Source: Eledone cirrhosa (Eukaryota). Taken from it: a DNA stretch of 64,000 bases. Location of the stretch: the NCBI GenBank assembly GCA_964016885.1, contig OZ024753.1:21824001-21888000 (forward strand). The letters run 5' to 3'. Positions 47,901 through 49,326 of this stretch are shown piece after piece. A program made the position numbers and the translations under genes. A model generated the notes under the pieces. That model did not search any database. It worked only from the letters and a program-made list of their open reading frames with translations, and was not told the origin of the DNA. How positions within the stretch are numbered: the first letter of the stretch is position 1; the number at the start of each line of letters is the position of its first letter.

Positions 47901-48402
47901 ATGTTTATAGTTGATTAAGAGCACTCAACAGTTCCTGGAGCAAATAATCAATAAAAGTAAGCATTAAAAAAACTCCATATGTAATTATGCATATACATAC
48001 AAAACCATACACACACATATGTAGTTGGTTGTGTGTGTATATATATATACACACAACAAACTACATATGTGTGTGCGGACACTAGGAACCCATATAAAAA
48101 TAATAATTCAGTGGATGGAATATATTTATCTCCAAATTATTTGTTGAGCGAAACTTGCCAAAATTTACTGCTATGGTTCATGGTAGTAGTTAGGCTCTTG
48201 TCATAATACCACCCCACTCCTCACTGATTAACCTCAGTGTCACGTGATTGATTCTTTAGAATTTGCCACTGACCAAGTAGGCAGTGAATTTTTTCAGTGC
48301 CCTGGAATTTAATCCCCGCTAGCTTTGTTCCATCCACTGAATTATTATTTTTATATGGGTTCCTAGTGTCCGCGCATTGCCTGGGAACTTAGCTGAGAAT
48401 AG

Positions 48403-48484
48403 ACTTCCTGATGACGTAAGGACTTCTCTATAGTTACATTACGTAACTATATTTATTCCCTTACAGAAACTAATTAGTTGGAGT
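48403..48484 (+). ncRNA. type I hammerhead, stem III CTAATTAG (unit 1)
   Basis: ACTTC-CTGATGA-..GTAAGG..CCTTAC-A-GAAA-CTAATTAG-TT-GGAGT. Confidence 0.85.
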
Positions 48485-48940
48485 GAAAATTTTAGTAAGT
48501 AAGTTAATTTTTAATTTTTAAAATTTTCTTATTTTACGTCTTTCATATAATTGTTCTGCATTCCCCTGCATAGAACCACAAAGGTACTAAGACATAACAT
48601 ATATTTCCTAGCATGGGTATACATCTGTATACATATGTTGGTAGATATACGAATTCTCTATATTTATCTCCAAATTATTTGTTGAGCGAAACTTGCCAAA
48701 ATTTACTGCTATGGTTCATGGTAGTAGTTAGGCTCTTGTCATAATATCACCCCACCCCTCACTGATTAACCTCAGTGTCACGTGATTGATTCTTTAGAAT
48801 TTGCCACTGACCAAGTAGGCAGTGAATTTTTTCAGTGCCCTGGAATTTAGTCCCCGCTAGTTTTGTTCCATCCACTGAATTATTATTTTTATATGGGTTC
48901 CTAGTGTCCGCGCATTGCCTGGGAACTTAGCTGAGAATAG

Positions 48941-49021
48941 ACTCCCTGATGAAGTAAGGACTTCTCTATAGTTACATTACGTAACTATATTTATCCCTTA
49001 CAGAAACTAATTAGTTGGAGT
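48941..49021 (+). ncRNA. type I hammerhead, stem III CTAATTAG (unit 2)
   Basis: ACTCC-CTGATGA..GAAA-CTAATTAG-TT-GGAGT. Confidence 0.87.
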
Positions 49022-49326
49022 GAAAATTTTAGTAAGTAAGTTAATTTTTAATTTTTAAAATTTTCTTATTTTACGTCTTTCATATAATTGTTCTGCATCC
49101 CCCTGTATAGAACCACAAAGGTACTACGACATAACATATATATTTGCTAGCATGGGTACACATCTGTATACATATGTTGGTAGATATACTAATTCTCTCT
49201 CTCTCTCTCTCTCTCTCTCTCTCTCTCTATATATATATATATATATATATATATATATATATATATATATATATATATATATATATATATATATATATAT
49301 ATATATATATATATATATATATATAT

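Follow-up and report, generated by a model that had tools for sequence, protein, structure and literature searches.

A tandem pair of hammerhead-bearing units in Eledone cirrhosa with probable insertion marks of Penelope-like elements

Does a tandem pair of non-coding units, each carrying a hammerhead ribozyme, record the rolling-circle propagation of a retrozyme, or was it left behind by the reverse transcription machinery of a Penelope-like element (PLE)? The question is raised by a locus within a 64,000-nt stretch of Eledone cirrhosa DNA (hereafter the window), for which an initial annotation had proposed a dimeric retrozyme at 48074..49197 that could directly release a unit-length RNA. The alignment and a scan of the reading frames bear out the two tandem non-coding units of about 538 bp, which are arranged directly head to tail at 48121-48658 (plus strand, 538 bp) and 48659-~49197 (plus strand, about 539 bp, with a 3′ end that blends into (TC)n) and are 97% identical, the 15 differing alignment columns comprising 12 substitutions and two indels, of 1 nt and 2 nt. 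The two units begin at the same base, the array holds a whole number of them, and their junction is clean, with no flank in between and the order unit end, TA run, unit start. The proposed span stands for the two direct units but has to be corrected at its start, which lies at 48121 and not at 48074, because 48075-48120 is an inverted copy of 48328-48373.

No stop-to-stop frame longer than 55 codons lies wholly within a unit, and tblastn with six PLE ORFs of the window detected no coding remnant in it at E ≤ 1. On this evidence the unit has no ORF with reverse transcriptase (RT) plus GIY-YIG and is therefore not itself an autonomous PLE. Searches with blastn and nhmmer found within the 64-kb window no other copy of the unit, and neither an autonomous PLE partner nor homology to a pLTR. 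A word search of sequencing runs found the unit partly present in 11 of 14 rows among the matches listed; within these, its word share was 0.61 in three runs (one sample, one study) and 0.25 in one run with a different organism label, and the small shares of the remaining seven carry no evidential weight. No RNA run stands among the matches listed, which has no bearing on expression. An exact 26-nt pattern had no match in metagenome contigs. Neither a tRNA nor a credible promoter was found; a Pol III A-box/B-box pair with one mismatch to the consensus in each box was rejected, since 99 of 1000 shuffles also have one.

The hammerhead core CUGANGA, GAAA and NUH is present in type I order in both copies. 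The CUGAUGA and GAAA segments of the core (at 48408 and 48466 in unit 1, at 48946 and 49003 in unit 2) and the palindromic stem III were correctly recognised by the initial annotation. The cuts that it predicted after 48479 and 49016 are reasonable; a GUU triplet ends at each of these positions, and they lie 537 nt apart and 179-181 nt from the unit 3′ end. Hammerhead 1 (48403..48484, plus strand, core 48408-48414) has a stem I with one G-U pair and, behind a basal C.A mismatch, a stem II made of 6 bp with an internal loop and a 9-bp distal hairpin, and hammerhead 2 (48941..49021, plus strand) has a perfect stem I and an A.A mismatch at the stem II base. In both, the core is surrounded by three helices, with 5 bp in stem I, 6 bp behind the mismatch in stem II, and in stem III 3 bp as a monomer or 10 bp as a dimer: the 8 nt between GAAA and UH form 3 bp and a 4-nt loop in the monomer, and the palindrome measures 12 nt. 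Internal loops are found in the extended stem I and in stem II, and an extra A precedes G12. The description of these motifs as minimal hammerheads does not hold, as a stem III and a long compound stem II are present. Cleavage after GUU is slower than after GUC; the literature searched offered nothing usable on GUU cleavage rates and no direct test of mismatches at the stem II base.

Rfam reported no family at gathering score in the 64-kb window and no hammerhead family among 43 matches up to E=10 in 48000-49250, where the top matches, microRNA models lying on the palindrome of the flank and all below gathering score, were rejected. The hammerhead descriptor gave 12 matches in the window, with two inverted pairs among them and not every match independent; 100 dinucleotide shuffles gave 0.07 on average. 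A perfect palindromic stem III occurs in 9 of the 12 and in no shuffle match. The ten matches besides the dimer, which also stay below the Rfam gathering score, are type I hammerhead motifs of several families, at 5215(-), 19315(-), 24494(-), 49515(-), 49658(+), 51163(-), 51996(-), 52882(+), 62571(-) and 62982(+), and most of them end near (TA)n.

Immediately to the right of the dimer, 49408-49765 is a hairpin mini-insertion with 177-nt arms (96% identical) and a hammerhead on each arm, of which a related copy lies at 5042-5286. The repeat at 50843-51703 (with a relative at 27707-28440, 79%) is a non-integer partial tandem with a period of 626 bp, and its hammerhead at 51163(-) has a long non-palindromic stem III; this would be a second candidate family of non-autonomous PLEs. 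Two copies of one element end, at 46647-47310(-) and 52383-52965(+), show several microsatellites and then a hammerhead with A.A at the base of stem II; the element seems to carry microsatellites as cargo. At 19202-19315(-) there is a hammerhead with a 95-nt stem II domain. Finally, two copies of a hammerhead-like motif with C for U at core position 4 occur at 62197(+) and 23725(-); the Hydra-like PLE 58832-62282 carries this C-core motif, possibly a natural core variant, at its 3′ end.

A wider look at the window shows that it is rich in microsatellites and in PLE-like ORFs. Pfam matches to RT and GIY-YIG were obtained in two of the seven frames scanned, partly below the curated cut-offs, and in none of the other five; one of these five joins the Pfam-positive ORFs (blastp E 1e-7), and three form a separate group whose members resemble, by eye, the printed Hydra-1_Obim protein. 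At 358-3806(+), a 750-aa RT/GIY-YIG frame follows an overlapping 422-aa frame in a two-ORF PLE-like layout, and further PLE-like ORFs are found at 6605-8287(-), 13382-16377, 17216-19076(-), 53061-54796(+) and 55791-62282, two of them accompanied by extensive inverted copies (1.0 kb, 94%; 2.3 kb, 97%) and three Hydra-clade-like by eye. Eight of the 12 hammerhead matches lie at most 260 nt upstream of a (TA)n run of at least five units, compared with 15% of random positions. Moreover, the hammerhead at 19315(-), which is of the same style as those of the dimer (long stem II, U.U at its base, GUU), is located 114 nt downstream of a sequence that matches, at 83-84% identity, the 3′ UTR belonging to the PLE-like ORF 53723-54796. 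Altogether, the PLE-like ORFs, the proximity to (TA)n and the link at 19315 indicate that such hammerheads are ordinary PLE 3′ ends in this genome.

Other repeats of the window include an interspersed one of about 190 bp, putatively an octopus SINE, in many copies at 10546, 12542, 21269, 22272, 27389, 43185, 52095 and 55215, twice as near-dimers. A 29-bp minisatellite occupies 30976-31478 (17 copies at 89%), with a unit similar by eye to the 5′ part of a tRNA-derived SINE, and the broken frames at 33592-35009(-) look by eye like a reverse transcriptase of the L1/Tx1 type.

On the left of the dimer, 48010..48075 is a 66-nt palindrome (94%) of two 33-nt arms folded back around the (TA)5 run 48038-48049, an arrangement found at one among 111 runs of at least four TA in the window, and which probably arose during insertion, when the left (TA)n half of the target was copied back on itself. 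It is followed at 48075..48120 (minus strand) by the inverted head, a 46-nt exact copy of the unit-internal segment 48328-48373 standing head-to-head with unit 1, so that the array consists of tandem units with an inverted piece on the 5′ side, the piece being internal, not 3′-terminal. On the right, at 49194..49326 (plus strand), (TC)17 and then (TA)49 form the right-hand part of the targeted microsatellite. At its 3′ end the dimer thus lies at a (TA)n microsatellite with a hammerhead nearby, as expected of a PLE insertion, and the fold-back, the inverted piece and the (TC)17(TA)49 end are read as marks of PLE insertion. Each unit stops just past a 21-bp hairpin that folds well on the ribozyme strand only: at 48600..48649 in unit 1 (plus strand, four G-U; z -3.3 sense, -0.8 antisense) and at 49139..49188 in unit 2 (plus strand, 21 pairs, five G-U; z -3.9 sense, -0.1 antisense). 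This terminal hairpin is a candidate start or binding signal for the RT. A target-site duplication was rejected, as the longest non-microsatellite word shared, of 8 nt, is explained by chance. Classical twin priming of the L1 type on one RNA was discarded as a full account, since the main copy reaches unit position 1 and does not stop beside the internal priming site.

Whether the two ribozymes could act was approached by fold computation. Stem II forms with a probability of 0.86-0.96, and the monomer stem III with one of 0.01-0.09. For the helix between the two palindromes the probability is 0.06 when the full dimer is folded and 0.35 for 48370-49060, and the double hammerhead gains 4.9 kcal/mol over two monomer folds in the shorter context or 1.7 kcal/mol in the full dimer. 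The active folds lie above the free ensemble by 4.7 or 8.7 kcal/mol and differ from the minimum-energy fold; in its context, hammerhead 1 forms its own stem I with a probability of 0.003-0.004. A competing helix between core and palindrome is predicted at 0.18-0.54 for copy 2 and the circle, and hardly for copy 1; in the predicted circle the core would be partly locked by the palindrome, with a probability of 0.40. In these models, then, the hammerhead is a real and gated one: its stem III is weak in the monomer, its core can pair with the palindrome, and two copies would build a double hammerhead. This gating in the dimer has modest computational support.

The hypothetical RNA running from cut to cut (48480..49016, plus strand, 537 nt, 35% GC) folds as a sense circle better than all 60 and all 40 shuffles (z -5.5 and -4.3; antisense z -1.2), with 61% of its nucleotides paired versus 58% in shuffles, and it is not rod-like. 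The score is not special in this genome, because three of 14 random microsatellite-free segments of the window also reached z ≤ -5 (12 shuffles each). The first four tiles of the unit gave z -0.9 to -2.1 in sense and +1.2 to -1.2 in antisense. As regards signs of constraint, each copy has a change that weakens a helix, in stem I for copy 1 and in the terminal hairpin for copy 2, as neutral decay predicts, and the identity of the core between copies that diverge by 2.5% is no evidence of selection.

Work with related ribozymes gives some guidance on activity. According to Li et al. 2026 (10.64898/2026.07.22.740005), only one of nine Xenopus retrozyme dimers cleaved in vitro. For the hammerhead of the Anolis Poseidon PLE, it is reported that cleavage needs the PLE protein, that the hammerhead is dispensable for insertion in vitro, that there are no reads at the cut site, and that the main insertion substrate is the uncleaved RNA. 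More generally, hammerheads of the PLE type are described as having low activity in vitro. Dimers of the axolotl HHR_Amex2, in which U.U is mismatched at the helix II base, are reported to cleave better than monomers and to give circles, and mussel retrozymes are reported to produce circles as well. For the Eledone dimer, it seems an even call whether some cleavage would be seen in vitro, and such cleavage would likely be slow or assisted by protein. A circle released from some copy of the family is conceivable, though we lean against it, and one released from this very locus is improbable.

How does the dimer compare with described systems? In Li et al. 2026, an active non-LTR retrozyme is defined by two consecutive units with complete type I hammerheads that fold below -5 kcal/mol, and the authors argue there that non-LTR retrozymes, of 51-972 bp, are non-autonomous elements derived from PLEs. 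The dimer falls within this definition when our own descriptor replaces their RNAbob models, so that the retrozyme label of the initial annotation is reasonable, although that annotation missed both the marks of PLE insertion and the frequency of the motif across the window. Like the animal non-LTR retrozymes, the locus has non-coding tandem units with a type I hammerhead each, a GC content below 50% and PLEs in the genome. With its 538 bp, the unit fits the size range of Li et al. and exceeds the 150-450 bp given in Cervera 2020 (PMC7229834). Unlike the animal retrozymes described there, the predicted RNA is not rod-like, the hammerhead combines a long compound stem II with a mismatch at its base and GUU, and the insertion shows an inverted head and a fold-back, with no target-site duplication seen.

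A likeness is also found with the 3′ ends of Hydra-clade and other EN+ PLEs, the pLTRs, as depicted in Craig et al. 2021 (Hydra-1_Obim; PMC8557442), where the hammerhead also lies at about 100-250 nt from the 3′ end. Hydra-clade PLEs share with the dimer the mismatch at the stem II base, U at the cleavage nucleotide, the palindromic stem III, the (TA)n target and, less exactly, the tandem plus inverted layout, and that work describes tandem and inverted PLE insertions with a (TA)n bias, the inverted copy there being 3′-terminal. By our own count of its File S2 (PMC8557442), U.U stands at the stem II base in 14 of the 26 Hydra-clade rows and the cleavage nucleotide is U in 10 of the 26; PLE-X1_cBra shows a C.A mismatch like that of copy 1. 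Seen against these entries, the odd features of the present ribozymes appear normal for PLE hammerheads. In contrast to the Hydra-clade PLEs shown there, the unit has no ORF, the dimer comprises a whole number of units and not a partial tandem, and the inverted piece is internal; the stem II of the present hammerheads also far exceeds in length that of the Hydra rows in File S2, and the likeness to named PLEs is one of structural features. The 5-bp stem I, the extra nucleotide after position 9 and the palindromic stem III region with predicted dimer action recall the dimer-acting PLE hammerheads and min-HHRs of Cervera & de la Pena 2014 (PMC4209133) and the double hammerheads of newt and axolotl satellite 2. 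Unlike the min-HHR of the same source (PMC4209133), which has no helix III or loop 3, these motifs do have a stem III, with a 12-nt palindrome and an extra A before G12.

Taking these observations together, the explanation that we prefer, and to which we give about half of our belief, is that the unit is a short non-autonomous element with fixed ends made of a PLE 3′ end, that is, an animal retrozyme as Li et al. 2026 use the term. From the arrangement of this one locus, a PLE RT/GIY-YIG protein acting in trans would have nicked a (TA)n tract, reverse transcription would have started just past the terminal hairpin, and a linear unit RNA would have been copied to its 5′ end. A jump through the short TA overlap at the junction may then have allowed a second unit to be copied, resulting in an exact dimer, and the other side could have been closed by fold-back and internal priming. 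The phasing of the dimer on the ends of the element, and not on the ribozyme cuts, fits jumps on a linear template, or a local duplication, better than a rolling circle. Weighing against this explanation are the lack of an autonomous partner in the window, the internal position of the inverted piece and the unfavoured active folds.

A somewhat unlikely but serious competitor holds that no separate family of small elements exists and that the locus is what a longer autonomous PLE with an extended 3′ UTR left behind, a dead-on-arrival tail truncated on its 5′ side. A single insertion would in that case have been doubled on site by a template jump or by later slippage through the 5-nt TA overlap that is common to the unit start and the target. 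The Hydra-like PLE of the window does extend for about 1.5 kb from its ORF end at 60760 to the end of its (TA)n at 62278, and with a 3′ UTR of this length a 538-bp tail could be free of coding sequence; moreover, most PLE insertions are 5′-truncated according to Li et al. 2026 and PMC8557442. The junction order of unit end, TA run and unit start also supports such a tail, since the exact phase then needs no fixed 5′ end. Against it, the window contains no matching PLE, and the sense folding bias extends into the unit's 5′ portion, which hints weakly at an RNA structured over its full length.

The classical rolling-circle retrozyme, in which multimers self-cleave to 537-nt circles and the circle served as template for the dimer, was the model of the initial annotation and looks unlikely to us. 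It would account for two intact tandem ribozymes and for a double-hammerhead fold that beats two monomers, a palindrome-locked core would protect a circle, and HHR_Amex2 and the mussel retrozymes offer precedents of circle formation. However, a stop within 2 nt of a whole unit would be expected in about 1% of cases if the stop were uniform (5/538), unless the TA overlap at the junction fixes it; the paired fraction barely departs from that of shuffled sequences, with no rod-like fold; and the unit exceeds the sizes reported in Cervera 2020 (PMC7229834). To this have to be added the eight of nine Xenopus dimers left uncleaved, the low activity of PLE hammerheads and the uncleaved substrate of Anolis. 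An assembly artefact in which two alleles or paralogous copies were joined in tandem is highly improbable, for while the copies differ by about 2.5% in a microsatellite-rich region, the units abut cleanly without intervening flank, and 97% identity is ordinary here because other inverted pairs of the window, each from a single event, are 96-99% identical.

Under the preferred reading of a non-autonomous element built from a PLE 3′ end, the kind of element is one already known, the animal retrozyme or non-autonomous PLE derivative, a small passenger of Penelope-like elements. As for its host, no description of a cephalopod retrozyme was found in the papers searched, and the family may already be catalogued. 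For the combination of octopus, hammerhead ribozyme and Penelope, the literature search listed Craig 2021 (PMC8557442) alone, and the core motif is absent from the supplement of that paper. The word hammerhead does not occur in the main texts of the two repeat papers on O. vulgaris and on coleoids, nor do octopus and cephalopod occur in the main text of Cervera 2020 (PMC7229834), and the main text of Li et al. includes no cephalopod.

The locus is of modest significance, adding an octopus-like genome to those with hammerhead-bearing tandem PLE derivatives. It also bears on whether circles are the template of retrozyme transposition or a by-product, since the dimer is phased on element ends and not on ribozyme cuts, a matter that one locus cannot settle. 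That it represents an active cephalopod retrozyme family, giving a 537-nt circular RNA by means of a self-locking double hammerhead whose core the palindrome would hold in monomers and free in dimers, is in our view an unlikely proposition. If it were true, the insertions of such a family would record the action of a PLE reverse transcriptase on (TA)n targets, with jumps that run exactly from end to end, a folded-back target, priming at internal sites and possibly a telomerase-like terminal reiteration of TC, and the element would provide a compact, ORF-free substrate on which the circle and the uncut linear RNA could be compared as intermediates of PLEs and retrozymes.
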